From Candidatus Omnitrophota bacterium (GTDB lineage Bacteria > Omnitrophota > Gorgyraeia > 2-02-FULL-51-18): a stretch of DNA of 64,000 nucleotides. Made by a program: the position numbers and the translations under genes. Positions 3,807 through 59,886 of this stretch are shown in pieces. The notes beneath the pieces are model-generated. The model was not told where the DNA came from. It made no database searches and saw nothing but the letters and a program-made list of their open reading frames with translations. The stretch is from NCBI GenBank assembly GCA_945877765.1, contig CAMDWQ010000008.1:13774-77773 (forward strand), written 5' to 3'. Within the stretch, counting starts at the first letter, position 1; every line of letters starts with the position of its first letter.

Positions 3807-4085
3807 ATGCCCACCTACGAATATAAATGCCTCAAATGCAAAAAGCATTTCGATAAACTCCAAAGCATGAGCGAAAAACCACTTAAGAGCTGCATTTACT
3901 GCAAAGGCAAAGTCGAGCGCCTCATCGGCGGCGGAGCAGGACTTATCTTTAAGGGTAGTGGATTTTACATCACGGATTATAAGAATAAATCCACCTCAGG
4001 ATCAGCTTCGGACTCGAGCAAACCTAAAGAAACTAAAACGGATAGCGCGCCCGTTAAGAAAGTGGAGAAGACGGATAAGAAATAG
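3807..4085 (+). CDS. FmdB-family zinc-ribbon putative regulatory protein with a Ser/Lys-rich tail
   Basis: MPTYEYKCLKCKKHFDKLQSMSEKPLKSCIYCKGKVERLIG...KGSGFYITDY matches the FmdB/CxxC_CxxC_SSSS family consensus (YEYxCxxCG…CPxCG…GxGFY). It begins 3 nt after the dnaJ stop. Confidence 0.75.
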   Translation: MPTYEYKCLKCKKHFDKLQSMSEKPLKSCIYCKGKVERLIGGGAGLIFKGSGFYITDYKNKSTSGSASDSSKPKETKTDSAPVKKVEKTDKK

Positions 4086-4261
4086 TGTTGCGCCAGGGCC
4101 TGGCCGGGAAATCTTTTCGGGCCGGCGTTAAATTTGCCCCACCGTGGCAAATTAAACTCGGAGATGAGAGCTCGCTCGTCCCGTCTATTACGACGGGACA
4201 CCATGGCCGCTCGCCTCATCTACGCGTCCCAAAAAGATTTCCCGGCCACCCGGCGGGGTGC
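4086..4261 (+). repeat. Copy A of a ~176-bp palindromic, multi-hairpin (MITE-like) repeat
   Basis: 16-bp terminal inverted repeats GGCCGGGAAATCTTTT (4103-4118) and AAAAGATTTCCCGGCC (4232-4247). Outer arms gtgttgcgccRgggcctg and cacccggcgSggtgc. Internal hairpins ttaaatttgcc/ggcaaattaaa and gtcccgtc/gacgggac lie inside a gatgag/ctcatc stem. It is about 90% identical to the reverse complement of 5186-5363 and to 59044-59217. Confidence 0.65.
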
Positions 4262-4327
4262 GCAGTGTCACCGCAACCAAGGCTAACGAGGTCTGGCAAT
4301 ATTGTTGGAATCAAAAGGATAGATATA

Positions 4328-4990
4328 ATGACTCATCAAGAAACGCAGAAATCATTTTGTAATAGATGTAAGAATATGAATAAGCATATTGTTCGGTATA
4401 AAAAAGTTGAACATGAATCCGAAGAAATTGACGAAGGATTTTCAGTTGAATGGGCTTATACTTACTATCTTTTAGAATGCTCTGGGTGTGAAGAGTTGTC
4501 ATTTTGTAAAGAAACTTTTTGGCCAAATGAATCTGTGGACATGGAGTTTTACCCACCTCGTGTTTCTAGAAGTAAACCTATTTGGTTTGATCAATTGCCC
4601 GAAGAATACCAAGAAATCCTCTCTGAAATTTATTCAGTTCTGCATATGGATAATCGTAGACTTGCGATGATGGGCGCGCGGTGTGTCATAGATTTGTTTA
4701 TTACTCGTAAAGTTGGCGATCAAGGAAGATTTGATCTAGGTATGAAGATGCTCGAAGCAAAAGGGTACATAAGCAATAAAAATGCTATTTTTTTGAAGGC
4801 CGCTGTTGAAATAGGACACGCGTCAGCCCATCGTGGTCATAAGCCGACTATTACAAACGTTAATTCTGTCATTGATATTGTCGAAAATTTACTTCAACAA
4901 GGCGAAGTTCTATCCAATTCTGCAAAACTTCTCAAAAAATCAACTCCCAGAAGAAAGCGACTTAGCAGGCGTGCTGTTGGGAAGAATTAG
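4328..4990 (+). CDS. Hypothetical protein with an N-terminal CxxC…CxxC zinc ribbon and a C-terminal DUF4145-like domain; possible defence or horizontally acquired cargo
   Basis: ATG at 4328 is preceded by AAGGA and a gatataat box. The N-terminus has CNRC…CSGC. The C-terminal segment …MLEAKGYISNKNAIFLKAAVEIGHASAHRGH fits the DUF4145 pattern (conserved A and H, GNxAAH-like). Codon usage is markedly AT-richer than the neighbours. The track ORF 4085-4990 N-terminal extension is read-through of repeat A. Confidence 0.6.
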   Translation: MTHQETQKSFCNRCKNMNKHIVRYKKVEHESEEIDEGFSVEWAYTYYLLECSGCEELSFCKETFWPNESVDMEFYPPRVSRSKPIWFDQLPEEYQEILSEIYSVLHMDNRRLAMMGARCVIDLFITRKVGDQGRFDLGMKMLEAKGYISNKNAIFLKAAVEIGHASAHRGHKPTITNVNSVIDIVENLLQQGEVLSNSAKLLKKSTPRRKRLSRRAVGKN

Positions 4991-5185
4991 CTTTTTTATT
5001 ATATCAATTGTACATAATATCCCCGTTTGGGCAGATCGGGAAGACGTGTTGTTTCTATGTTGAGCGGAGGAATATACTCTCTTTATTCGCCAAGCGAATA
5101 AAAGCCGCTGAAAGCGGCGGCAGGGGGGCATTTTTTTTGCACGAGCCTGCCAGAGAGTGCGAGTGTATAAAAGTTCTACACAATT

Positions 5186-5363
5186 GCACCGCGCCGGGTG
5201 GCCGGGGAATCTTTTTGGGACGCGTAGATGAGGCGAGCGGCCACGGTGTCCCGTCGTAATAGACGGGACGAGCGAGCCCTCATCTATCGAGTTTATTTTG
5301 CCTGGGCGGGGCAAAATAAACGCCGGCCCGAAAAGATTCCCCGGCCAGGCCCCGGCGCAACAC
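5186..5363 (-). repeat. Copy B (inverted orientation) of the ~176-bp palindromic repeat
   Basis: Reverse complement of 4086-4261 at about 90% identity. TIRs are GGCCGGGGAATCTTTTT (5200-5216) and AAAAGATTCCCCGGCC (5331-5346). The internal hairpin is ttattttgcc/ggcaaaataa, a compensatory variant of copy A. Confidence 0.65.
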
Positions 5364-5543
5364 CTATGCCACTGCACCATCAGAGCCCCTCACTTACGTT
5401 AATCGTAAAAAATTAAGAAAATAGTTTTGACGAAAACCGGCCTTTCTGTCGTCAAGTAGGGTAGAGGGAGGTCTTCATAATGCCAATAGAAGATAACGTT
5501 ATTGCCACTTGCACAGTATACGTTAATATGGTATATTTTAAAC

Positions 5544-5837
5544 GTGATTGTTAGTTTTGGGGATCAGGCGACGGAAGATATGTTTCACGGGATGTCTTCC
5601 AAAAAGGCGTTGAGAGCGGTGCCTGTCGATCTTTGGAGAGTGTCCCAAAGAAAGCTTGATATGTTGCACGCTGCCCAGGATTTAATTGATCTGAGGGTTC
5701 CACCTAACAATCGCCTTGAGAGCTTAAGAGAGGATCTCGAAGGTTATTATTCAATACGCATTAATGTTCAGTACCGACTTATTTTTAAATGGGCACCAGG
5801 CAGTGCTTCCGAAGTGCAGATCGTTGATTATCATTAG
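5544..5837 (+). CDS. higB: HigB-like toxin (RelE/ParE superfamily, plasmid-maintenance killer protein PF05015 type)
   Basis: …IVSFGDQATEDMFHG…YYSIRINVQYRLIFKW…VQIVDYH matches the HigB-2/PF05015 consensus (SFKxKxxExLF.G … IRINxQWRxxF … IxDYH). The start is uncertain: GTG at 5544 was chosen so the protein begins at the conserved N-terminus. The track ORF begins at ATG 5502. Confidence 0.7.
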   Translation: MIVSFGDQATEDMFHGMSSKKALRAVPVDLWRVSQRKLDMLHAAQDLIDLRVPPNNRLESLREDLEGYYSIRINVQYRLIFKWAPGSASEVQIVDYH

Positions 5838-5846
5838 GAGAAACAA

Positions 5847-6119
5847 ATGATCCCGACCAATAGAAAACCCAGTCATCCCGGCGAAATACTCCTGACGGAG
5901 TTTTTGGAGCCACTCAAAATGAGCCAGTCCGAATTGGCCAAAAAAATGGGTGTGCCTATTCAGCGTGTGAATACGCTTATCAATAAAAAAAGAGGGGTGA
6001 CGGCCGAGACCGCCATTCTTCTGTCTGAAGTATTAAAAAATACCGCAGAATTTTGGATGAACCTGCAGGCTATCTACGATCTCTACGAAGCGCGCCAGAC
6101 TCTTAAGAGCGCAGCCTAA
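5847..6119 (+). CDS. higA: HigA antitoxin (XRE-family HTH)
   Basis: SHPGEILLTEFLEPLKMSQSELAKKMGVPIQRVNTLINKKRGVTAETAILLSEVL…FWMNLQAIYDL is the typical HigA HTH_XRE sequence. It lies 9 nt downstream of higB and follows an AGGAG Shine-Dalgarno sequence. Confidence 0.8.
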   Translation: MIPTNRKPSHPGEILLTEFLEPLKMSQSELAKKMGVPIQRVNTLINKKRGVTAETAILLSEVLKNTAEFWMNLQAIYDLYEARQTLKSAA

Positions 6120-6130
6120 TAAGTGACAGC

Positions 6131-6286
6131 CTAGATACGCTCAATCGTATATTTAGGGCTATTATCGGCTTGTGGAATCGCCACTTTGTTGGCACTGCGC
6201 TGGAAAGCGGAGAACCACTTGTGTAAGGATCTCACCCGTCTTTTGCGCGCCAGATTGTCTAGATCAGCTTTGGTTACCGTTGTCAT
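6131..6286 (-). CDS. Possible small ORF (51 aa, MTTVTKADLDNLARKRRVRSLHKWFSAFQRSANKVAIPQADNSPKYTIERI); speculative
   Basis: Minus-strand ATG at 6286 is preceded by AGGAG at 7-nt spacing. It lies in an otherwise unexplained 330-bp gap between higA and the DUF1015 gene. No homology was recognised. Confidence 0.2.
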   Translation of the reverse strand: MTTVTKADLDNLARKRRVRSLHKWFSAFQRSANKVAIPQADNSPKYTIERI

Positions 6287-6447
6287 TGTTTCGCTCCTAG
6301 GCCTAGTTATTTTTGATTAAAATTGCTTATAGACCAAGCATACATGAGGCTTCGAGCCAATGCAACTGTTGATAATATTTCCACCTGGTTATTTCCAGTG
6401 CTATAATAGCCACTCATTTTTTAAACGGAAGATAAGGAAGCAAATCG

Positions 6448-7722
6448 ATGCCTGAAATTAAAGCGTTTCGCGGATGGCGTTACAACCCTGCCAAGAATCA
6501 AGATCTCTCTAAAGTTTTTGCGCCACCCTATGATGTCATCTCTCCTCGTCAGCAGAAAAAATTGTACGATGAAAATCCTCACAACGTGATCCGTCTGGAG
6601 TTGGGTACGGAAGAAGCGGGTGACTCGGTGATGAACAACAAATACACTCGCGCGGCCGATTACCTTAAAGAGTGGAAGACTCAGTCCATTTTAGTCCGTG
6701 AAGACGAGCCTGCACTTTACGTGTATATTCAGGATTATCAGGAAGAGGGCAAACAAAAGACACGTCTTGGATTTTTGTCTCTGATGAAAATTGACGAAAA
6801 AGCCGTATTGAAGCACGAGAATACACTTGCTGCCCCCAAAGAAGACCGCTTAAAGCTTTTGCGGGCCACACGTACCAATCTTAGCCCGATCTTTGGACTC
6901 TTTGAAGACAATAAAAAAGTCGTAAACTCTTTTCTTAAAAAAACAATGAGTCTTAAGCCGTTTGCCGATGTGACAATTGATGGCGTGCGTCACCGGCTTT
7001 TTATCGAGACGCGTGGAAATGTGTTGGCGGGGATTGAGAAAGCCATGAAGGGCAAGACCATGTACATCGCCGATGGGCATCACCGTTTTGAAACTGCTTG
7101 CAACTTTAAAAAAGAAGCAGGCACCAAAGGTCTTGCGGGTCCCGGCTACGTGATGACGTATTTTGCTGACTGTTACAACAACCCCTTTAAAATTTTTCCC
7201 ACACACCGCCTCATTAAAATTAAAGACGTGAAGAACTGGGAAAAGCTGGCAAAAATCGGAACGCATGAAAAAGTAAAAGATTTAAACACGCTGCTTAAGC
7301 ATTTAGAGGACTATCGTGAGGATGTACCGGGCAAGCCCTACGAATTTGGTTTTTATGCCAAAGGCCATGGTTTTCATCTTTTTAAAATGAACAAAGCCAC
7401 CGCCAAAAAAGTCAAAAACAATCCCGTCGACCGTCTGGATGTGGCGGTGCTCCACCAGTTCATCATTGACCCTTGTTTTGGAATTAAAAAAATCGAGAAA
7501 TCCGAACAAATTGATTTTACGCGCTCCCCCGAAGATGCGGTTGCCCGCGTGGATCACGGGTTGTTTGACGCAGCTTTATTTTTGAGGCCGACATCCCTTA
7601 AGGAAATGATACTTGCCTCGAAAAAAGGCTTAAAGATGCCGCAGAAATCGACCTATTTTTATCCCAAACTTCTATCGGGCCTGGTGTTTCACAGCTTTGA
7701 GGATGGGATTCAAAACCAATGA
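6448..7722 (+). CDS. DUF1015-family protein
   Basis: The N-terminus MPEIKAFRGWRYNP…VFAPPYDVISPRQQKKLYDENPHNVIRLEL matches the characteristic DUF1015 signature (I.PF.G.RY……APPYDVI). Confidence 0.75.
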   Translation: MPEIKAFRGWRYNPAKNQDLSKVFAPPYDVISPRQQKKLYDENPHNVIRLELGTEEAGDSVMNNKYTRAADYLKEWKTQSILVREDEPALYVYIQDYQEEGKQKTRLGFLSLMKIDEKAVLKHENTLAAPKEDRLKLLRATRTNLSPIFGLFEDNKKVVNSFLKKTMSLKPFADVTIDGVRHRLFIETRGNVLAGIEKAMKGKTMYIADGHHRFETACNFKKEAGTKGLAGPGYVMTYFADCYNNPFKIFPTHRLIKIKDVKNWEKLAKIGTHEKVKDLNTLLKHLEDYREDVPGKPYEFGFYAKGHGFHLFKMNKATAKKVKNNPVDRLDVAVLHQFIIDPCFGIKKIEKSEQIDFTRSPEDAVARVDHGLFDAALFLRPTSLKEMILASKKGLKMPQKSTYFYPKLLSGLVFHSFEDGIQNQ

Positions 7723-8423
7723 TTAAACCCAAGGCGCTGACCTCCATTTCTTTCTTTTTTCCCTGCTACAACGAAGCTGAAAACGTGGGGTCTATGATTG
7801 AGCAGTGCGTGAAAGTTGGTGAAGATTACGGTGTGGATTATGAGGTGATTGTCGTGGATGACGGCAGTCGTGACCAGTCGGCTGAAATTGTCAAGCGCTG
7901 GTCCGCCAAAAATCCGCGTGTACGGTTGGTCCAGCACCCGCAAAATTGCGGGTACGGCGCGGCCTTACGCACGGGGATTAAGAGCGCCACCAAAGAGCTC
8001 GTTTTTTTAACCGACGGCGATAATCAATTTCATCTAGCGGATATTGAAAAGCTTTTTTCTAAAATTGACAGCTGTGATGTGGTGGCAGGTTACCGCATCG
8101 TTCGACAGGACAAGATTCACCGCCGTTTGAATGGTTTTCTATGGACGCAGCTCAACAAGACTTTGTTTGGCCTTAAAATCCGCGATGTAGACTGTGCTTT
8201 TAAGCTTTTTCGCAGGAAGTGTCTCGATGGCCTGGAGCTTGAGTCCAACCAGCTTTTGATTCATGCGGAAATTTTGGCTCGCTTAAAGAAGAAGGGTTGC
8301 AAAGTCGAAGAAATCGGCATCCCTCATTATCCGCGCACCGCGGGAAAAGCGACCGCCACGCAGCCGATTCGAATTCTTAAGACATTTGGCGAGCTTTTTG
8401 GGCTGTTTTGGAAGATTCGATAG
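7719..8423 (+). CDS. Family 2 glycosyltransferase (dolichol-phosphate mannosyltransferase-like)
   Basis: ISFFFPCYNEAENV…EVIVVDDGSRDQS…LTDGDNQF shows GT2 DxD and DDGS motifs. It overlaps the previous stop by 4 nt. Confidence 0.8.
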   Translation: MIKPKALTSISFFFPCYNEAENVGSMIEQCVKVGEDYGVDYEVIVVDDGSRDQSAEIVKRWSAKNPRVRLVQHPQNCGYGAALRTGIKSATKELVFLTDGDNQFHLADIEKLFSKIDSCDVVAGYRIVRQDKIHRRLNGFLWTQLNKTLFGLKIRDVDCAFKLFRRKCLDGLELESNQLLIHAEILARLKKKGCKVEEIGIPHYPRTAGKATATQPIRILKTFGELFGLFWKIR

Positions 8424-23169: not shown

Positions 23170-23220
23170 TTGACAAAGAGTGTGTCATAATTTATCATAT
23201 AAGTATACAAATATGTATAC
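23170..23220 (+). promoter_or_regulatory. Putative sigma70 promoter and operator of the abiE operon
   Basis: TTGACA (23170-75), a 17-nt spacer, TATCAT (23193-98), then two copies of the self-palindromic hexamer GTATAC spaced 6 bp apart (23203-23220). This lies immediately upstream of the AbiEi start. AbiEi antitoxins are known to autoregulate through inverted repeats in their promoters. Confidence 0.35.
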
Positions 23221-23234
23221 TATTGGTATAAATT

Positions 23235-23792
23235 ATGAATAATTCAAAACGGTTAAAAATACTCATGGAATCCGGAAGATCGATATTCACGCCTTTGGAC
23301 TTGCGTCTGTTGTGGGGGATGAGTGAGTCGAGCGCCAAGATGAGCGCTGTGCGAATGGTGGAAAAAGGTCTTATGATAAGGCTGGCCGCCGGCTATTATG
23401 CCCTGAATCAACGGTATAATCCGCACGAGCTTGCCAACCGGCTGGCGGCGCCTTCCTACGTTTCGTTTCAGGCTGCCCTTTTTCAAGCGGGGGTTAATTT
23501 TCAAGCGCGCCGGGAGATTGGTTCCGTGGCGACACGCAATCACAAAAAGAAAGTGGGGGAAGTGATTTATACCTATACTGCGATGAAGAAGGAGTTGTTT
23601 TTCAATGGGGAGGGCGTGGTAACCCGTGAAGGCGTTTCTATCGCGCTTCCCGAGCGCGCGATCCTTGACAGTTTTTACTTCGGCTATTTACCGGATATTG
23701 ACGATGCTGGAAAATTAAATAAAACTCTTTTGGCGAAATTAAGCGCCTTGTATCCCAAGACTGTCCAAAAGAAGGCAGAAAAACTCTTATGA
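23235..23792 (+). CDS. AbiEi-family antitoxin/transcriptional regulator (type IV TA / abortive infection)
   Basis: N-terminal wHTH-like region (SIFTPLDLRLLWGMSESSAKMSAVRMVEKGLMIRLAAGYYAL) resembling AbiEi. The AbiEii gene follows with a 4-nt overlap. Confidence 0.65.
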   Translation: MNNSKRLKILMESGRSIFTPLDLRLLWGMSESSAKMSAVRMVEKGLMIRLAAGYYALNQRYNPHELANRLAAPSYVSFQAALFQAGVNFQARREIGSVATRNHKKKVGEVIYTYTAMKKELFFNGEGVVTREGVSIALPERAILDSFYFGYLPDIDDAGKLNKTLLAKLSALYPKTVQKKAEKLL

Positions 23793-24475
23793 GCCGCTTG
23801 TTCGAATGGGACAGGCATAAAAGGTATCTTGCGCTTTTACTGACGGAGCTGGCCAAAGCCTTTCCCGAGAAGATTGCGTTTAAAGGTGGCACCTGCGCTT
23901 ATTTTTTTTATAATCTCCCGCGATTCTCATTTGATCTGGATTTTGACATGATACGGGCATTCAAGGCTATGGATGCCGATCTATTCCGTGAGATTGTGGC
24001 AAAGCATGGACAAGCGAGAAATTTTTATGACAAGGCAAACACATTGTTTTGTCTTTTTGATTACGGAAAAGATAATCCCAATATCAAAATCGAGCTGAAT
24101 AAGCGCGTGTGGAAAAACAACGTTTATAAGCTGGTCTGGTTTATGGGCGTGCCGGTTTCTATCGCGGATGAAACGACTGTTTTGACCAATAAGCTGGTCG
24201 CGCTCATGGACCGCAAAACCGCAGTCGCAAGAGATTTATACGATAGCTGGTATTTTTTAAAGGCGGGATTTCCGGTCCATGACGCCCTGGTCTTGGAGCG
24301 CACCGGCCGGGATACCCGGACCTATTTGAGAGAAGTCGCCGCGTTTATTAAGAAAACCTATACGTCCCGTAACGTGTTGCACGGGCTGGGTGACGCGCTC
24401 GATGAAAAACAGAAGGCTTGGGCGAAGGAGTATCTTGTTTCAGAGACAATACAGGAGATCACCAGGCGTGCATAA
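23789..24475 (+). CDS. AbiEii/AbiGii-family nucleotidyltransferase toxin
   Basis: IAFKGGTCAYFFYNLPRFSFDLDFDM matches the AbiEii/DUF1814 nucleotidyltransferase motif (FKGGTAL…R.SxDLDF). Confidence 0.8.
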   Translation: MSRLFEWDRHKRYLALLLTELAKAFPEKIAFKGGTCAYFFYNLPRFSFDLDFDMIRAFKAMDADLFREIVAKHGQARNFYDKANTLFCLFDYGKDNPNIKIELNKRVWKNNVYKLVWFMGVPVSIADETTVLTNKLVALMDRKTAVARDLYDSWYFLKAGFPVHDALVLERTGRDTRTYLREVAAFIKKTYTSRNVLHGLGDALDEKQKAWAKEYLVSETIQEITRRA

Positions 24476-24578: not shown

Positions 24579-25760
24579 ATGTACCAGCGAAGTATGACCC
24601 AAGTGATTCGCAAGCGATTGTCGGAAAAAAGACGCTTTATTCAAGTGATTTTAGGACCCCGCCAGGTAGGTAAAACCACGGCTATTCAACAGGTGTTAGA
24701 GGCGATTGGTGTCCCGTCCCAGTATGCGGCGGCGGATCTTCCTGCTCCTCCTGATACGGGCTGGATAGCCAGGCAGTGGGATATTGCGCGGATGAAAGCT
24801 AGTGAAGGAAAGACCGCTGTTCTTGTTTTGGATGAAATTCAGAAAGTCTCGCATTGGTCGAGCGAAGTTAAGCGTTTGTGGGATGAGGATAGCCAGGCAC
24901 GCCGCTCCATTCAGGTAGTGCTTTTGGGGTCGTCCTCTTTGCTTATTCAAAAAGGTTTAAGTGAAAGCCTAGCGGGACGATTTGAACTTATTCGCTTTCC
25001 TCATTGGTCATGGATTGAAATGAAAGAGTGTTTTAGCCTGTCTTTGGAGCAGTATATCTATTTTGGAGGGTATCCCGCATCGGCATCCTTGATGCAGGAT
25101 GAAAATCGCTGGGGGCAGTATCTGCGTGATTCCTTGATCGAAACGGCCCTATCCAAGGACATTCTTCTTTTAAACCGCGTTGAAAAACCCATTTTATTGA
25201 GACAGTTGTTTGTCTTGGCGTGCGAGTACAGCGGGCAGATTTTGTCCTATCAGAAGATTCTGGGCCAATTGCAGGACGTGGGCAACACCGTGACGGTGGC
25301 GCATTACCAAAGGCTTTTGGAGGCCGCTTTTCTTATCAAAGGATTGCAAAAATGGTCAGGCCAAACAATTCGTTCAAGAAGTTCGAGTCCTAAATGGCTT
25401 GCTTTGAATTCCGGTCTCGTCAGCGCTCTCTCTAACCGTACTTTTGATGAGTGGCGTCAAGATCCGGCCCAATGGGGAAGACTCGTGGAAACCAGCGTTG
25501 GCGCTCATTTGGCCAATCAAGGCGTCATCGAGGGGATCGAGGTGTATTATTGTCGGGAAGGCAATCACGAGGTTGATTTTGTCCTGCGCAAAGGTTCTAC
25601 CTTAACGGCGATTGAGGTAAAAAGCGGACAGAAGCGGATCGAATCCAAGGGCCTGTCTAAATTCAAAGAGCATTACCCTCGCGCCAAGACGCTGGTCGTG
25701 GGAACCGGAGGAATGACAACCAAGGATTTTTTTGAACACCCTATCACCAAATTAGTTTGA
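24579..25760 (+). CDS. AAA+ ATPase (COG1373, AAA_14 + DUF4143) with a C-terminal PD-(D/E)xK nuclease-like motif
   Basis: Walker A GPRQVGKTT and Walker B VLVLDEIQ. The C-terminal …HEVDFVLRKGSTLTAIEVKSGQ shows the D…E.K arrangement of restriction-endonuclease-fold domains. The gene stands alone, flanked by intergenic gaps. Confidence 0.8.
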   Translation: MYQRSMTQVIRKRLSEKRRFIQVILGPRQVGKTTAIQQVLEAIGVPSQYAAADLPAPPDTGWIARQWDIARMKASEGKTAVLVLDEIQKVSHWSSEVKRLWDEDSQARRSIQVVLLGSSSLLIQKGLSESLAGRFELIRFPHWSWIEMKECFSLSLEQYIYFGGYPASASLMQDENRWGQYLRDSLIETALSKDILLLNRVEKPILLRQLFVLACEYSGQILSYQKILGQLQDVGNTVTVAHYQRLLEAAFLIKGLQKWSGQTIRSRSSSPKWLALNSGLVSALSNRTFDEWRQDPAQWGRLVETSVGAHLANQGVIEGIEVYYCREGNHEVDFVLRKGSTLTAIEVKSGQKRIESKGLSKFKEHYPRAKTLVVGTGGMTTKDFFEHPITKLV

Positions 25761-30857: not shown

Positions 30858-30922
30858 AGCAGTCAACTGCATTCTAATATCATGCTTGACAAACATCATG
30901 TTTGAAGAGCATCATTATAGCT

Positions 30923-32236
30923 ATGAAACATACTTCATTGTTTTGGAACCGCCAAGCTGAGATTCAGTTTATTCAAAGCCGCCTGCGGCGCGGAGGCCTT
31001 GGTTACCTGACGGGTCGTCGTCGTATCGGTAAGACGGCGCTTCTGAAGAGGATCTGCAGTCAATGGAATGGGCTATACCATCAAGCCGTAGAGGGGACTC
31101 CGGATCAGCAGCTCTTGCATCTGTGTGAGGAGTGGTCTGCAAGGATCCCTATTTTGGGCGAGATTCGCCCGCGGTCTTGGGGTGAATTTTTTAAACTGAT
31201 TTCAACGCAAAAGCTTCCAAAGTTGATCGTGCTTGATGAGTTTCCGTATTGGACCGCCGCTGACCCTGGATTTGCCAGCCATTTTCAAAAATGGGTGGAT
31301 CATCATCTGCCGTCCTTGAAGTGTTTGGTTCTGGTCTCGGGCTCATCGCAATCGATGCTGGATTCTCATTTCTTGGGCCGTCAGGCTGCGCTCTTCGGAA
31401 GAAGCATCTTTCATTTAAGAATCAAGCCGATGAGTTACCGATGGTTTTGCAAGGCTTTAGGTTTCTCGGCTCAAGATCCTCAATCATTCACGCGCTTTAC
31501 GATGGTTGGCGGAGTGCCGCATTATTGGAAGCTGATTCATTCTGCGTCGGTGCTCGAACAAGCCGATGAGCTTTATTTTAATTCTTCCGCTATGTTGACC
31601 GATGAGCCTTCTTCCTGGCTTCGCGATGAGGGGATTTCCGGCCATCTTTCTAAGGCGGCGCTGGACTTGGTTGGGCGAGGTGTGCGCAAGCCTAGTGAAT
31701 TGGCATCGCGCTTAGCCGTGCCGCAGGGAAATCTATCAAGACCGCTTTCTGTGCTTCTGGAGCTTGGGTTTATGCGCCGCGAATTGCCGTTCGGAGAGTC
31801 CTCGAGATCGACCAAAAAGGTACTGTATAACATCGAAGATCCAGCATTATCTTTTTATTATGGGACTTACTTGCCTCACAGAGCACTATGGGCGACGTAT
31901 CCAGCGGCGAAGAAAATGCAGATTTTAGAGCTTCATGCGTCCGGGCACTGGGAAAATTTATGCCGGCGATCCTTTGCAGGTTCCAATCGGTATTGGAGCG
32001 GTAAATCTGAGATTGACCTAGTCGCGCCCTTGCCTGACCCTAAAGAGGGCTATCTCGTGGGAGAATGCAAATGGGCCTGGGTGGATAAGAAAGTAGAATC
32101 AAGGCTTTTGGAGGACTTAAAAACTCGATTTGAGCCCACTGAGCTTGGACAAACGCTCAAGAAAAAATACCCCATTACCTATCGGATTTTTTCAAAAAAA
32201 GATCTTTCGACCACCGCTAACCTGGAGAAGTCGTGA
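30923..32236 (+). CDS. AAA+ ATPase (COG1672, ATPase_2 + DUF234) with a C-terminal PD-(D/E)xK nuclease-like motif
   Basis: Walker A GRRRIGKTA and Walker B LIVLDEFPY. A wHTH-like segment is followed by …SEIDLVAPLPDPKEGYLVGECKWAW (D…E.K). The start is uncertain: TTG at 30902 or ATG at 30923. Confidence 0.75.
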   Translation: MKHTSLFWNRQAEIQFIQSRLRRGGLGYLTGRRRIGKTALLKRICSQWNGLYHQAVEGTPDQQLLHLCEEWSARIPILGEIRPRSWGEFFKLISTQKLPKLIVLDEFPYWTAADPGFASHFQKWVDHHLPSLKCLVLVSGSSQSMLDSHFLGRQAALFGRSIFHLRIKPMSYRWFCKALGFSAQDPQSFTRFTMVGGVPHYWKLIHSASVLEQADELYFNSSAMLTDEPSSWLRDEGISGHLSKAALDLVGRGVRKPSELASRLAVPQGNLSRPLSVLLELGFMRRELPFGESSRSTKKVLYNIEDPALSFYYGTYLPHRALWATYPAAKKMQILELHASGHWENLCRRSFAGSNRYWSGKSEIDLVAPLPDPKEGYLVGECKWAWVDKKVESRLLEDLKTRFEPTELGQTLKKKYPITYRIFSKKDLSTTANLEKS

Positions 32237-41908: not shown

Positions 41909-41981
41909 GTCATTCCCGAATGTTTTAATCGGGAATCAAACCGATACATGATCCCCGATAAAAAATTTCGGGGATGACATT
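41909..41981 (+). promoter_or_regulatory. Copy 1 of a 73-nt double-hairpin motif
   Basis: gtcATTCCCGAatgttttaaTCGGGAATcaaaccgatacatgATCCCCGAtaaaaaattTCGGGGATgacatt. It lies 27 nt after the gatB stop and ends 3 nt before the deacetylase ATG. It has the same architecture as 56130-56202, but with the two stem sequences exchanged between hairpins. Confidence 0.5.
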
Positions 41982-50697: not shown

Positions 50698-51759
50698 GTG
50701 CGTTTTTTAAAAAAAATCGAGGAGAAAGTCGCCCGCTTCAAAGAAGTGGAGCGGCTTCTCCAAGATCCATCCGTCACCTCTGAGCCCTCTCGGGTCAAGG
50801 ACCTCGGCAAAGAATTTCGCGGTCTTGAAAAAATCAACAATCTCTATAATGAGTATTTAAAAGTGCACGCCGAGATTGAAGAAGTGCGCCATCTTTTAAA
50901 TGATAAAACTCAAAGCGCTGATCTTATTTCAATGGCGTCGCTTGAAGCCGAGTCCCTGGCAGTGCGTGAAAAAAAAGCCATTGGAGACATCGAGGCCCTC
51001 TTGATGCAGGAAGACCCTCTTTTAATTAAAAACGTGATCATGGAAATCCGCGCGGGAACCGGGGGGCTTGAGGCGGGGCTTTTTGCCGGCGATTTGTTGC
51101 GCATGTACTCGCGATTTTCTGCCAAATGTGGTTTTAAAATCGAAGTTCTTTCTCTTTCCCCCAACGATGCGGGTGGTCTCAAGGAAGTGATAGCGTCCGT
51201 CACGGGTGCCGGCGCTTACGGTAAATTTAAATATGAAAGTGGCACTCACCGCGTCCAACGCGTCCCGGCAACCGAGGCTTCCGGCCGTATCCACACCTCT
51301 GCTGTCACCGTGGCTATTTTACCGGAAGCCGAAGAAGTGGATGTGGAAATTAAACCCGAAGACCTTCGCATTGACGTCTTTCGTTCTGGCGGACCTGGCG
51401 GTCAGAGTGTGAATACAACCGATTCGGCGGTCCGTATTACGCACATCCCTTCCGGACTTGTGGTGAGCTGTCAGGATGAAAAATCCCAATTAAAAAACAA
51501 GCAAAAGGGGATGAAGATTCTTCGCGCTCGTCTTTTTGAAAAAATTACCAATGAGCGCAATGCCGAAATCGCTAAGAATCGCAAAGAGCAAGTTGGTTCC
51601 GGCGACCGTAGTGAAAAAATCCGCACTTACAATTTTCCCGACCGCCGCGTCACCGATCACCGCGTAGGTTTTACCTCGCACAACCTAGAAGCCGTGCTAG
51701 AGGGCGATCTTGAGGGTTTTGTGAATGCGCTTTTTGAGGACGAGCTTGCCAGGAGTTGA
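50698..51759 (+). CDS. prfA: Peptide chain release factor 1
   Basis: GGQ motif (GGPGGQSVNTTDSAVRITHIPSG) and the PxT-type tripeptide (PAT) of RF1. GTG start. Confidence 0.9.
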   Translation: MRFLKKIEEKVARFKEVERLLQDPSVTSEPSRVKDLGKEFRGLEKINNLYNEYLKVHAEIEEVRHLLNDKTQSADLISMASLEAESLAVREKKAIGDIEALLMQEDPLLIKNVIMEIRAGTGGLEAGLFAGDLLRMYSRFSAKCGFKIEVLSLSPNDAGGLKEVIASVTGAGAYGKFKYESGTHRVQRVPATEASGRIHTSAVTVAILPEAEEVDVEIKPEDLRIDVFRSGGPGGQSVNTTDSAVRITHIPSGLVVSCQDEKSQLKNKQKGMKILRARLFEKITNERNAEIAKNRKEQVGSGDRSEKIRTYNFPDRRVTDHRVGFTSHNLEAVLEGDLEGFVNALFEDELARS

Positions 51760-52711
51760 TAGCTTGTTGCAAGCGGCTCGTGATAACGCAGCCTACCTGC
51801 TTAAAATCAAAAGAAGCTTATCCCTTAAAAAAATCATGTCCCCGGCTGTTGAGGCCCAAATCCTCATTTTCCATTTTTCAAAAATAAACCGTATCGATTT
51901 TTTGACCGGCACCAAAATACCTTCGCTGCCACAGAAAAAGAAGATTGAGCAGGCTCTGCAAAAAAGGCTAACGGGGATTCCTGCCGCTTATTTGACAGAA
52001 ACTGCCGGGTTCTACGGACATGATTTTTTAGTGAACCCCTCTGTCTTAATCCCCCGGCCTGAAACCGAGCTTTTGGTGGAGCAAACACTAAAAATTTTAA
52101 ATCAGGTGCCACAGGGGTCAGACCCCTCTGGCACCAAAGCTGCCAAATCCTTGTTTTCTCCTAGGGGTCAGAGGGGTCAGACCCCTCTGGCACCGGAGGT
52201 TCTTGAGATTGGGACGGGGTCGGGGTGTATTGCCGTCAGTTTGACAATCGCAAGGCCAGACTGTAGAATGACGGCTCTTGATATTTCGAGCGAAGCGCTT
52301 AAAACCGCCCGTAGAAACGCCCGTCAGCATGGGGTGGCTGGGCGGATTTCTTTTGTTAAGAGCGATTTATTTTCAGTTTTTGGGCCTCGGCATCGCGGTC
52401 GTTGGGATATTTTAGTATCCAATCCACCCTATGTTCCCCGAAGTGATTTTCGAAATTTGCAGCGCGAAGTGAAGAAAGAGCCGCGCCTGGCGTTGGATGG
52501 CGGTAAAAGCGGTTTAGTGGTGATTGAGAAAATTCTCAAGGAAGCGCCGTATTATCTAAAAAATGGCGGCTATATTCTTCTAGAAATCGGGAAGGGCCAG
52601 TCGCGGGCATTAGGTAAGATGGCGACCCAGATGAAGTTCTTTCAAAGTTTAAAGTTTGTCAAAGATTACGCGGGAATTGACCGCTTTTTAGTCGCGAGGA
52701 AAATTGGATAA
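51725..52711 (+). CDS. prmC: Release factor glutamine methyltransferase PrmC (HemK) carrying a repeat-derived in-frame insertion
   Basis: The NPPY motif (LVSNPPYVP) and SAM motif I (VLEIGTGSGCI). The N-terminal region is about 50 aa longer than usual because of the 52114-52194 segment. It overlaps the prfA end by 35 nt. Confidence 0.8.
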   Translation: MRFLRTSLPGVDSLLQAARDNAAYLLKIKRSLSLKKIMSPAVEAQILIFHFSKINRIDFLTGTKIPSLPQKKKIEQALQKRLTGIPAAYLTETAGFYGHDFLVNPSVLIPRPETELLVEQTLKILNQVPQGSDPSGTKAAKSLFSPRGQRGQTPLAPEVLEIGTGSGCIAVSLTIARPDCRMTALDISSEALKTARRNARQHGVAGRISFVKSDLFSVFGPRHRGRWDILVSNPPYVPRSDFRNLQREVKKEPRLALDGGKSGLVVIEKILKEAPYYLKNGGYILLEIGKGQSRALGKMATQMKFFQSLKFVKDYAGIDRFLVARKIG

Positions 52712-53972: not shown

Positions 53973-54030
53973 TAAATTCGAAGCGCGAAATTCGAAATCC
54001 GAAACAAATTCGAATTTTCGAAAATTCAAT

Positions 54031-54130
54031 AACCAAAACAACTGTTTCGAATTTTGATATTCGAATTTCGAATTTGTTTAACCATAACAACTGTTTCGAA
54101 TTTCGATATTCGAATTTCGAATTTTGTTTT
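54031..54130 (+). repeat. Tandem ~50-bp direct repeat (2 units) rich in palindromic TTCGAA motifs
   Basis: Unit 1 (54031-54079) is aaccaaaacaactgtttcgaattttgatattcgaatttcgaatttgttt. Unit 2 (54080-54130) is aaccataacaactgtttcgaatttcgatattcgaatttcgaattttgtttt. The flanking 53977-54030 is also ATTCGAA-rich and includes the perfect 12-mer palindrome aaattcgaattt. Confidence 0.5.
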
Positions 54131-55536: not shown

Positions 55537-56149
55537 TCTTGATTATTTAAATCAGGGATTTAAATCCCTGGCGGGCGTGGATGAAGCGGGGCGCGGGCCA
55601 TTGGCCGGTCCTGTAGTTGCTTCAGCCGTGATCGTCAGGGATTTTTCATTTTTTTCAACGGTCAATGACTCGAAGAAAATGACGGCGAAAGCGCGCGAAC
55701 GCGCCTATGAAGAAATTTTGACAAAATGTGTGGTGGGAATCGGAATTATTGATTGCCATACGATTGATAGAATTGATATTTATCAAGCCACGCTTCGAGC
55801 GATGGAAGAGGCGGTGATGAAGCTTGGCGAGGTGCCGGACGTCATCTTGGTGGACGGGCCCAAAACGCCAAATTTGCCGTTTAGGCAGGTGCCGATTGTG
55901 GATGGGGACGCCATCTCATTTTCGATTGCCTGCGCGTCCGTGGTGGCGAAAGTCACGCGTGACCGCATGATGGAACATTACGCCGAAGAATTTCCGCAGT
56001 ACGGTTTTGAGAAGCACAAAGGTTATGGGACCAAGAGCCATATGGAAGCAATCAAGAAAAATGGTCCCTGCAAAATTCACCGCAGGAGTTTTGAGCCGAT
56101 AAAGTCTTTAATAAAACAGGGGGCCAACTGTCATCCCCGAAATCTTTAA
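55469..56149 (+). CDS. rnhB: Ribonuclease HII
   Basis: [21 protein letters not shown]…DSKKM…VDGPKTP are RNase HII catalytic motifs. TTG 55469 was chosen, about 32 aa upstream of GVDEAGRG. The track's 55349 start would overlap rplS by 188 nt. The last 7 codons overlap hairpin 1 of the double-hairpin motif. Confidence 0.8.
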
Positions 56150-56202
56150 TCGGGGATCAAACTTAGGAATGATTCCCGATAAAAAAATTCGGGAATGACA
56201 TT
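56130..56202 (+). promoter_or_regulatory. Copy 2 of the 73-nt double-hairpin motif
   Basis: gtcATCCCCGAaatctttaaTCGGGGATcaaacttaggaatgATTCCCGAtaaaaaaatTCGGGAATgacatt. It spans the rnhB stop (56147-49) and ends 9 nt before the guaA ATG. Relative to copy 1, the ATCCCCGA and ATTCCCGA stems are exchanged between hairpin 1 and hairpin 2. Confidence 0.5.
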
Positions 56203-58945: not shown

Positions 58946-58971
58946 CACCTCCGGACGCACGACACACCCCA

Positions 58972-59017
58972 CACTTCGGGAGTGTGCCGCAGCTTTTGGC
59001 GGCACTCTCGCGAAGTG
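58972..59017 (+). terminator. Strong stem-loop (19-bp stem, 2 mismatches, 8-nt loop) after the glycine-zipper gene; possible terminator, but it lacks a U-tract
   Basis: cacttcgggagtgtgccgc (58972-90) - agcttttg - gcggcactctcgcgaagtg (58999-59017). It lies 27 nt upstream of repeat copy C. Confidence 0.35.
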
Positions 59018-59043
59018 TGTTCTCGGTTGGGTGTAACGTTGAA

Positions 59044-59217
59044 GTGTTGCGCCGGGGCCTGATCGGTAAATCTTTTCGGGCCAGCGCTCTTTTGCCCCTC
59101 CGAGGCAAAATTCGCTCTAAAGACAAGCTCGCTCGTCCCGCTATAAAGAACGGGACTCCATGGCCGCTCGCTTGTCTAAGCGTCCCAAAAAGATTTCCCG
59201 CTCACCCGGCGCGGTGC
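59044..59217 (+). repeat. Copy C of the ~176-bp palindromic (MITE-like) repeat
   Basis: gtgttgcgccggggcctg…atcttttcggg…cttttgcc-cctccg-aggcaaaa…gtcccgc-tataaagaa-cgggac…gcgtcccaaaaagatttcccgctcacccggcgcggtgc. It is in the same orientation as copy A. Its internal hairpins carry compensatory changes. Confidence 0.65.
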
Positions 59218-59369
59218 TACGCTTTCCATAGCCTCACCCCAAGTTAATCGATATACAAATTCCTGAAAATAATCCTGACGAAAAGTAGGTTCTCTGTCGT
59301 CCTGTAGAGTAGATATGGAGGACTATATAATATGGCTAGAAATATGTATAAAAGTATGGTATTATTTCC

Positions 59370-59651
59370 ATGGAAGTAGTATCAGGTAGTTTTTGTTGGG
59401 ATGAATTCAAAGAGGACCAGAATATCTTGAAGCATGATGTTTGTTTTATCGCGGCTTCGAAAGCATTTTTCGACCCAAGTTGTTCGGTATTCAAAGATGA
59501 TGCGCATAGTTCGGTAGAAGAAAGATGGTTTTGTATTGGGATGGTCGATGGCAGGCCGATGACCGTTCGGTTTACTTATCGCGACCAGAGGATTCGTATT
59601 ATTGGAGCAGGCTACTGGAGAAGCAGAAGGAGGTATTATTATGAAAAATGA
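59370..59651 (+). CDS. brnT: BrnT toxin (DUF497 ribonuclease)
   Basis: FCWDEFKEDQNILKHDVCFIAASKAFFDP…DDAHSSVEERWFCIGMVDGRPMTVRFTYRDQRIRIIGAGYW matches the BrnT/DUF497 pattern (FEWDxxKxxxNxxKHGVxFxEA…DxxHSxxEER…G……RIISAR). Confidence 0.75.
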   Translation: MEVVSGSFCWDEFKEDQNILKHDVCFIAASKAFFDPSCSVFKDDAHSSVEERWFCIGMVDGRPMTVRFTYRDQRIRIIGAGYWRSRRRYYYEK

Positions 59652-59886
59652 AATTTTTGATGAGAATATGCCCCATGGGAAGCTTACGAGGGTTGAGAAT
59701 TTTTTGCCGCCGCCGAGTGAATTGATCATGCCTGAACAGCCGGTGAAAGTCACGATGATACTGAATAAACCCATCGTTGATTTCTTTAAACAGCAGGCGC
59801 ATCGGCATCACACCAAATATCAGCGGATGATACGTGAAGTGCTTGGGCAATATATGAATCAATACAAAGATCCGAAGGCAGCCTAA
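59641..59886 (+). CDS. brnA: BrnA antitoxin (RHH-containing)
   Basis: ATG 59641 follows GAAGGAGG. …VKVTMILNKPIVDFFKQQAHRHHTKYQRMIREVLGQYM matches BrnA (…IRLDxDVLDWFKxxGxGYQTxINxxLRxYM). It overlaps the brnT stop by 11 nt. Confidence 0.7.
   Translation: MKNEIFDENMPHGKLTRVENFLPPPSELIMPEQPVKVTMILNKPIVDFFKQQAHRHHTKYQRMIREVLGQYMNQYKDPKAA

Follow-up and report, generated by a model that had tools for sequence, protein, structure and literature searches.

A 64-kb stretch of DNA (hereafter the window) from an uncultured Candidatus Omnitrophota population carries three copies of a non-coding palindromic element, which we read, at about even confidence, as a low-copy, lineage-specific repeat of the MITE/REP-like kind. 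The identity of the repeat, its fold, its compensatory changes, its non-coding nature, its position at the borders of accessory genes and its absence from relatives are all observed directly. Its mobility, a mobilising enzyme and any effect at the RNA level are what we infer, and the label ‘mobile’ is taken solely from the orientation and position of three known copies.

The copies (designated A, B and C) occupy positions 4085–4261 on the plus strand (177 nt; 211 bits against a covariance model of the three copies), 5186–5363 on the minus strand (178 nt; 202 bits) and 59044–59217 on the plus strand (174 nt; 156 bits). Copy C is the one at whose position a first-pass annotation of this DNA had described a family of three palindromic, multi-hairpin elements. 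Our analysis bore out that description, with the orientations and, for B and C, the boundaries that it gave; copy A starts at 4085 rather than 4086, its first base being the G that closes fmdB (stop codon TAG). Copies A and B share 92% identity and C is ~82% identical to either, and the GC content of the element (~60%) compares with ~48% for the genome. All copies have conserved termini (GTGTT... and ...GGTGC, with ends 5'-GTGTTGCGCC ... GGCGSGGTGC-3'), and their 24-nt terminal inverted repeat arms, 92% complementary, extend into an outer stem of ~37 bp. The 16-mer GCGTCCCAAAAAGATT occurs exactly three times within the window and eight times when up to three mismatches are allowed, versus 1.5 expected. 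Every motif that the annotation had quoted was found (the outer arms, the terminal inverted repeat stem, the tip hairpin and a second hairpin that varies in sequence and stays complementary), but the GATGAG/CTCATC stem that it placed around GTCCCGTC-N6-GACGGGAC is present in A and B only, with a compensated GACAAG/CTTGTC in its place in C. Copy B is inverted as a whole relative to A and C; an internal flip of B via recombination between its own arms was rejected, since these arms can be told apart and are themselves inverted.

Each copy folds into a Y shape, in which the ~37-bp outer stem leads past a CCU/A internal loop to a three-way junction bearing two unlike hairpins. Hairpin 1 has an A/T-rich stem with terminal GCC/GGC; hairpin 2 is longer and irregular, with an invariant tip (GTCCCG...CGGGAC) and invariant flanking GCTCGCTCG and TGGCCGCTCG. 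On the plus strand of copy C, the 5' arm of the outer stem (GTGTTGCGCCGGGGCCTGATCGGTAAATCTTTTCGGG, 59044–59080) pairs with the 3' arm (CCCAAAAAGATTTCCCGCTCACCCGGCGCGGTGC, 59184–59217), hairpin 1 (TTTTGCC-loop-GGCAAAA) spans 59090–59110, and hairpin 2 spans 59121–59177, where a basal stem (AGACAAG/CTTGTCT) surrounds the invariant GCTCGCTCGTCCCG...CGGGAC tip. Compared with dinucleotide shuffles, these folds are unusually stable in copy A (−88.7 kcal/mol, z −6.2) and copy C (−71.6 kcal/mol, z −3.8), and the minus strand of A folded as DNA reaches z −7.8.

The fold has been retained through paired substitutions. In a consensus structure of 68 pairs, obtained with RNAalifold from the three-copy alignment, seven pairs are kept through two-sided changes, versus 1.9 ± 1.0 in column shuffles (0 of 500 reached seven) and zero to one in a control where the 3' partners were slid by 1–3 columns. 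The compensated pairs include columns 44/72 and 48/68 in hairpin 1, whose stem varies among copies with its complementarity kept, and columns 76/140 and 82/135 in hairpin 2. Visual inspection of hairpin 2, whose basal stem is AGATGAG/CTCATCT in A and B versus AGACAAG/CTTGTCT in C, shows two compensated pairs next to each other; the automatic alignment conceals one of them in a gap. The structure-preserving covariation proposed in the first-pass annotation is therefore real, as judged from three independent sequences and some strain variants that are nearly identical to them. Unpaired positions also diverge 2–6 times faster than paired ones: between A and B, divergence is 3.7% in paired versus 21% in unpaired columns (Fisher p = 8e-4), and between A and C it is 17% versus 36% (p = 0.016). 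In other assemblies, strain variants of copy A differ from the window sequence by three changes that recur (one converting a C·A mismatch to C–G, one breaking a U–A pair and one in a loop). A single contig (L008) has three further A-to-C differences, possibly errors of sequencing; these variants are too few for inference on present-day selection.

Six-frame translations revealed no reading frame conserved across A, B and C, as indels shift the frames, and a protein-coding reading of the element is excluded on this basis. Public assemblies nevertheless carry annotated ‘genes’ of 75 and 146 aa across A and B (3977–4219 and 4940–5380, both on the minus strand; 7616–7843 and 8579–9019 in contig L002), which are translations of the repeat and thus annotation artefacts.

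The first-pass annotation attributed the covariation to selection on the fold, whether as RNA or as a DNA cruciform. Fold-preserving change agrees with this, but it does not demonstrate selection at the RNA level: the compensation is strand-symmetric and does not discriminate DNA from RNA, and the antisense strand folds slightly better. Sense folds of A, B and C have energies of −89.5, −105.1 and −71.6 kcal/mol and antisense folds −95.7, −111.7 and −85.3 kcal/mol, such that antisense RNA is the more stable by 6–14 kcal/mol in all three copies. G·U pairs number 5–6 in sense versus 2–3 in antisense folds, an excess almost entirely due to four terminal pairs: GUGUU/GGUGC forms one G–C and four consecutive G·U pairs on the sense strand only, with A·C mismatches on the opposite strand. 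The GTGTT...GGTGC ends could equally be a conserved unpaired terminal recognition sequence. Overall, neither strand was distinguished by better folding of a sense RNA or by general G·U richness, and the equal folding of both strands gives no pointer to a strand-specific RNA and fits a palindrome maintained at the DNA level. Promoter and terminator scans gave no excess over shuffled sequence and no hit tied to the element, which contains no T-run or U-tract and so no canonical intrinsic terminator. The annotation had proposed a candidate novel family, and in keeping with this Rfam 15, with its three-way-junction ribozymes, 6S and HEARO/omega RNA families, was silent at gathering score across the whole window and at E ≤ 10 across 3900–5600. 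A GAUGAG near the three-way junction brought the hammerhead ribozyme into consideration, but this candidate was dropped as copy C replaces the motif and Rfam is silent.

These results bear on an alternative that we consider unlikely, namely that the element is a structured cis-acting RNA or small RNA tied to toxin–antitoxin (TA) or defence cassettes and selected for its fold as RNA, where it might serve, for example, as a 5' insulator, a processing signal or a ligand of a cassette protein. The compensatory changes, the better conservation of stems than loops and the terminal G·U pairs peculiar to the sense strand are all compatible with such an RNA, as are the location of all three copies immediately before an accessory or TA gene and the sense orientation of A and C with respect to their flanking genes. 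However, copy B is antisense to all of its neighbours, and a sense RNA from it would need an unseen minus-strand promoter. The energetic advantage of the antisense strand, the lack of promoters, terminators and Rfam relatives, the fact that conservation is lowest in the loops and junctions, where an RNA usually has its functional parts, and the occurrence of other TA and defence loci in the window with no adjacent copy likewise argue against it.

No search turned up a copy beyond these three. Run with filters off over the whole 64 kb, the covariance model recovered A, B and C, the remainder being noise. From three copies in 64 kb, the first-pass annotation had extrapolated to many genome-wide; this claim is unsupported, with no further copy in any collection searched. 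An exact search of GTDB species representatives with a 21-mer from the right arm found a single chance match within a coding region, an exact-pattern scan of JGI metagenomes and a pattern scan with the central hairpin found nothing, and the 42 IMG/VR loci containing the 16-mer were all chance matches according to BLAST and the covariance model. Degenerate peptide patterns of the translated element matched 114 stretches in JGI metagenomes and 14 in IMG/VR, none of which was confirmed, and BLAST against plasmid and phage collections detected no similarity. An exhaustive HMMER search for ORFs running across other copies, which covered 1.84 billion representative proteins, returned only the ORF at this locus and an unrelated tandem-repeat protein; since such a scan detects only copies called as a gene in that frame (true for one of the three known copies), it argues against hundreds of public copies, not against a handful. 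Word-index protein searches for the spurious ORFs came back empty and missed the known 146-aa ORF too, and are hence uninformative, while a cluster look-up placed the spurious ORFs in clusters that contain this locus alone. Contig breaks near the copies were rejected as a sign of high copy number: many contigs do end in or near copies, which is accounted for by a 33-mer common to A and B and by SNPs between strains within A, and copy C is read through without interruption in a k=31 Logan contig (L053).

The surroundings of the copies are accessory in character. Copy A abuts the stop codon of an fmdB-type zinc-ribbon gene (3807–4085, plus strand) that ends an hrcA-grpE-dnaK-dnaJ-fmdB cluster. 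Between A and the inverted copy B lies a DUF4145 gene (4328–4990, plus strand; 220 aa) in a region of 42% GC, and beyond B come a HigB-like toxin (5502–5837) and its HTH antitoxin HigA (5847–6119), together spanning 5502–6119 on the plus strand, with the true HigB start probably at a GTG near 5544. The resulting gene order is fmdB-A-DUF4145-B-HigBA-DUF1015. Copy C is situated between guaA-MazEF-Gly-zipper and BrnTA-(144 aa)-CxxC protein-dnaE, where the BrnT toxin (59370–59651) and BrnA-like antitoxin (59602–59886) occupy 59370–59886 on the plus strand. GC-rich hairpins with similar tips (GCCGC-loop-GCGGC) are found 5–50 nt upstream of C (58959–59039) and B (about 5096–5138), the latter followed by a T-run and resembling, from its sequence, a terminator for DUF4145.

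The first-pass annotation had placed all copies beside TA or defence-type genes. This is true of the copies (A precedes DUF4145, B precedes HigBA, and C separates MazEF/Gly-zipper from BrnTA), but the 5' side of MazEF, AbiE and PDC-S01 have no copy. The defence-type genes with no adjacent element comprise AbiEi/AbiEii (23235–24475, with a 25-nt inverted repeat, 23185–23238, in front), a PDC-S01 (AAA_14/DUF4143) ATPase (24579–25760) and a PDC-S27-like ATPase_2/DUF234 protein (30902–32236). The window otherwise consists of housekeeping genes and a few defence or TA genes; no transposase, RAYT, Y1 transposase, tyrosine recombinase or integrase was found in its 64 kb, nor any tRNA.

Comparison with relatives indicates that the slot downstream of fmdB is variable. 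The nearest DnaJ relative is 78% identical, and the DnaJ relatives are annotated as Candidatus Omnitrophota or Omnitrophica. Two of them (DnaJ 68–69% identical) have the order fmdB-VanZ-DUF1015, beyond which the genes are those seen here, a third has a 1639-aa gene after fmdB, and two others have different genes (one of them unidentified, not DUF1015). Because the slot differs among relatives, the block from A through HigA is lineage-specific accessory DNA. When 57 kb of syntenic sequence from four Omnitrophota relatives was searched by the covariance model with filters off, it contained no copy, and this result together with the fmdB-VanZ-DUF1015 order indicates that the element came with or after the lineage-specific accessory DNA. 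The dnaK-dnaJ-fmdB junctions are also, across relatives, hot spots for small accessory genes, one relative (L074) having a DUF2283 gene and two small ORFs at the dnaK/dnaJ junction.

More than 20 population contigs (from NCBI GCA_947444795.1 and several ENA and Logan assemblies) included no empty site, and every contig reaching the three sites carries the element. Relatives are without it, but the cargo at their loci differs too, leaving no clean empty site. A search for target-site duplication around every copy, in which the boundaries could shift by ±4 nt, yielded only chance-level matches of 2–5 nt. The lack of such a duplication and of an empty site counts against a MITE/REP-like reading, as do the absence of a transposase, RAYT or recombinase from the window, the small number of known copies and the missing U-tract.

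The arrangement around DUF4145 raises the further possibility that A-DUF4145-B (4085–5363) is a 1.28-kb composite unit that moved whole, with C as a solo copy. Copies A and B resemble one another (92%) more than either resembles C and are inverted around a single low-GC gene, a TA dinucleotide lies on both outer flanks, and pairs of MITEs can mobilise passenger DNA, as in IMU (PMC3184786). But a 2-bp match arises by chance in about 1/16 of cases, the DUF4145 protein was found at this locus alone, and the seven population contigs covering A-DUF4145-B are identical in arrangement, with neither inversion nor absence. We regard a composite unit as improbable.

A second shared sequence accompanies copies B and C. 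A leader of ~85 nt after B and running into HigB (5398–5481, plus strand) is homologous to one after C that runs into BrnT (59243–59331, plus strand; Smith–Waterman z = 14), and the leader motif TGACGAAAA-N9-CTGTCGTC occurs twice in the window versus zero expected. The two leaders precede unrelated TA operons (HigBA and BrnTA) and are separated from the palindromes by spacers of 34 nt (B) and 25 nt (C) with unrelated sequences; no significant similarity to the leader was detected downstream of A. The leaders contain GTAG-type direct repeats, and past them the two sequences remain weakly similar in the direction of the toxin start codons. Since B is fully inverted and its leader has the same orientation as that after C, palindrome and leader must be separate units that have become adjacent twice, with the palindrome in either orientation. 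This shared orientation is not predicted by simple random insertion and thus also weighs against a MITE/REP-like repeat. Two scenarios fit: the palindrome may have inserted, blind to orientation, beside a shared TA promoter module, or TA modules may have landed next to palindromes already present.

The same junctions could instead be read as borders of mobile cassettes, with the element as a folded-DNA recombination site, attC-like in principle, whose recombinase is encoded elsewhere. The copies sit exactly where a core gene, DUF4145 and HigBA meet and where Gly-zipper meets BrnTA, the slot after fmdB holds different cargo in each relative, and B and C share a leader before unrelated TA operons. 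As in attC sites, structure is conserved above sequence and the sites border cassettes of TA or unknown-function genes, and long attC sites can carry three-way tips. The range for attC is 57–141 nt, however, which the element exceeds at 176 nt, and attC arrays are co-oriented, whereas A and B face opposite ways and C lies 54 kb off. The ends lack RYYYAAC...GTTRRRY, a GTTRRRY-like GTTGCGC at the 5' end having the wrong polarity and GCGSGGT as its partner, and neither IntI nor any other integrase is present in the window; attC itself was rejected as a candidate. Moreover, no copy marks the distal border of HigBA (6120–6447), the distal border of BrnTA or the guaA-MazEF junction. A recombination site of this type is accordingly very unlikely in our estimation. 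Least probable of the readings we weighed is that palindrome and ~85-nt leader form the entry point of an undescribed cassette-exchange system, in which a recombinase encoded elsewhere would insert unrelated TA and defence modules (DUF4145, HigBA, BrnTA) beside a folded-DNA site, in a manner resembling attC but with another chemistry at the ends and free of any rule on orientation.

The window also contains repeats of other kinds. A second palindromic family, with a 73-nt unit, is present after gatB (41909–41981) and before guaA (56130–56202). Its copies are 82–84% identical, match as both direct and inverted repeats, and comprise a pair of short hairpins (ATTCCCGA...TCGGGAAT and ATCCCCGA...TCGGGGAT); this double hairpin looks like a REP doublet or REPIN, and is more REPIN-like than the Y-shaped element. 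Two near-identical 32-nt palindromes (AGGTGCCACAGGGGTCAGACCCCTCTGGCACC; 52104–52135 and 52163–52194) lie within a PrmC-like methyltransferase ORF (51725–52711), between its N-terminal and methyltransferase domains, and may represent palindromic sequence that was inserted into the gene in frame. Finally, the spacer between an EPSP-synthase family (PF00275) gene and trmD contains tandem 49-nt repeats and TTCGAA-rich inverted repeats (53974–54124).

If the Y-shaped element is a MITE/REP-like repeat, it would have spread as DNA in either orientation, through non-autonomous transposition or recombination, and would have landed at intergenic junctions where acquired modules (DUF4145, HigBA and BrnTA) meet core operons. 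Its working form would be the folded hairpin, a Y shape open to each strand by itself whether in DNA or in RNA; we propose that a requirement for this folded form keeps the stems conserved and compensated while the loops drift. Read-through from the upstream gene (fmdB for A and the Gly-zipper gene for C) would produce a very stable hairpin (−70 to −105 kcal/mol), which could protect 3' ends or insulate TA promoters from upstream transcription in the manner of REP, ERIC and bcr1-type repeats. By analogy with those repeats, a hairpin of this kind between core operons and TA promoters, whether incidental or selected, is most plausibly the role of the element. Should the MITE/REP-like reading be true, the element is one more lineage-specific family of palindromic repeats, the first that we were able to document for Omnitrophota, with practical use as a marker of accessory-gene junctions and as a warning to annotators about artefact ORFs. 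If genome-wide copies were found systematically at the borders of TA or defence cassettes, element and leader together would point to a mechanism of targeted cassette insertion.

The repeat and its compensation are real, and the object is of an ordinary kind with several relatives in form. It has hallmarks of bacterial MITEs in being short (174–178 nt, below ~400 bp), non-coding and bounded by terminal inverted repeats. Its three known copies in 64 kb lie in two orientations. The Correia or NEMIS elements of Neisseria are MITEs of 100–155 bp with terminal inverted repeats of ~25 bp, which are found next to genes, co-transcribed with them and processed as RNA hairpins. Our element resembles them in terminal inverted repeats of similar length and in its siting by genes, but Correia elements duplicate a TA target and contain promoter and IHF elements, whereas we found neither consistent duplication nor promoter-like sites. 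The enterobacterial ERIC/IRU and YPAL sequences are imperfect palindromes of 127–170 bp whose RNA hairpins alter the stability of flanking mRNAs (reviewed in PMC3184786). They share with our element a long imperfect palindrome, intergenic or 3'-UTR placement and the use of both orientations, though ERIC is a single long hairpin with many more copies, in contrast to a three-way junction here, and the sequences are unrelated.

The element is also similar to REP, BIME and REPIN sequences as a GC-rich extragenic palindrome found after stop codons, with a hairpin kept by compensation and no target duplication. REPs, however, are units of 20–40 nt with a GTAG tetranucleotide, tens to hundreds of copies and an associated RAYT, and in the window we found a 176-nt element with no GTAG-type foot, at low copy number and with no RAYT gene. 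In E. coli, REPs have been noted between folA and apaH, a variable spacer that bears TA genes (PMC3184786). Among known kinds, bcr1 or ERIC is most alike, and of the analogues described so far bcr1 comes closest; in the Bacillus cereus group it is a MITE-like, transcribed repeat of ~155 bp with a cruciform-like fold kept by compensatory changes (PMC3184786). Unlike our element, bcr1 has 5-bp flanking direct repeats, many copies per genome and demonstrated transcription; the Omnitrophota element, known from sequence alone, shows no target-site duplication, is known from three copies, and comes from an unrelated phylum with a dissimilar sequence. What the two have in common is their size, their non-coding, intergenic and dispersed nature, and a multi-stem, cruciform-like fold preserved through compensatory change.
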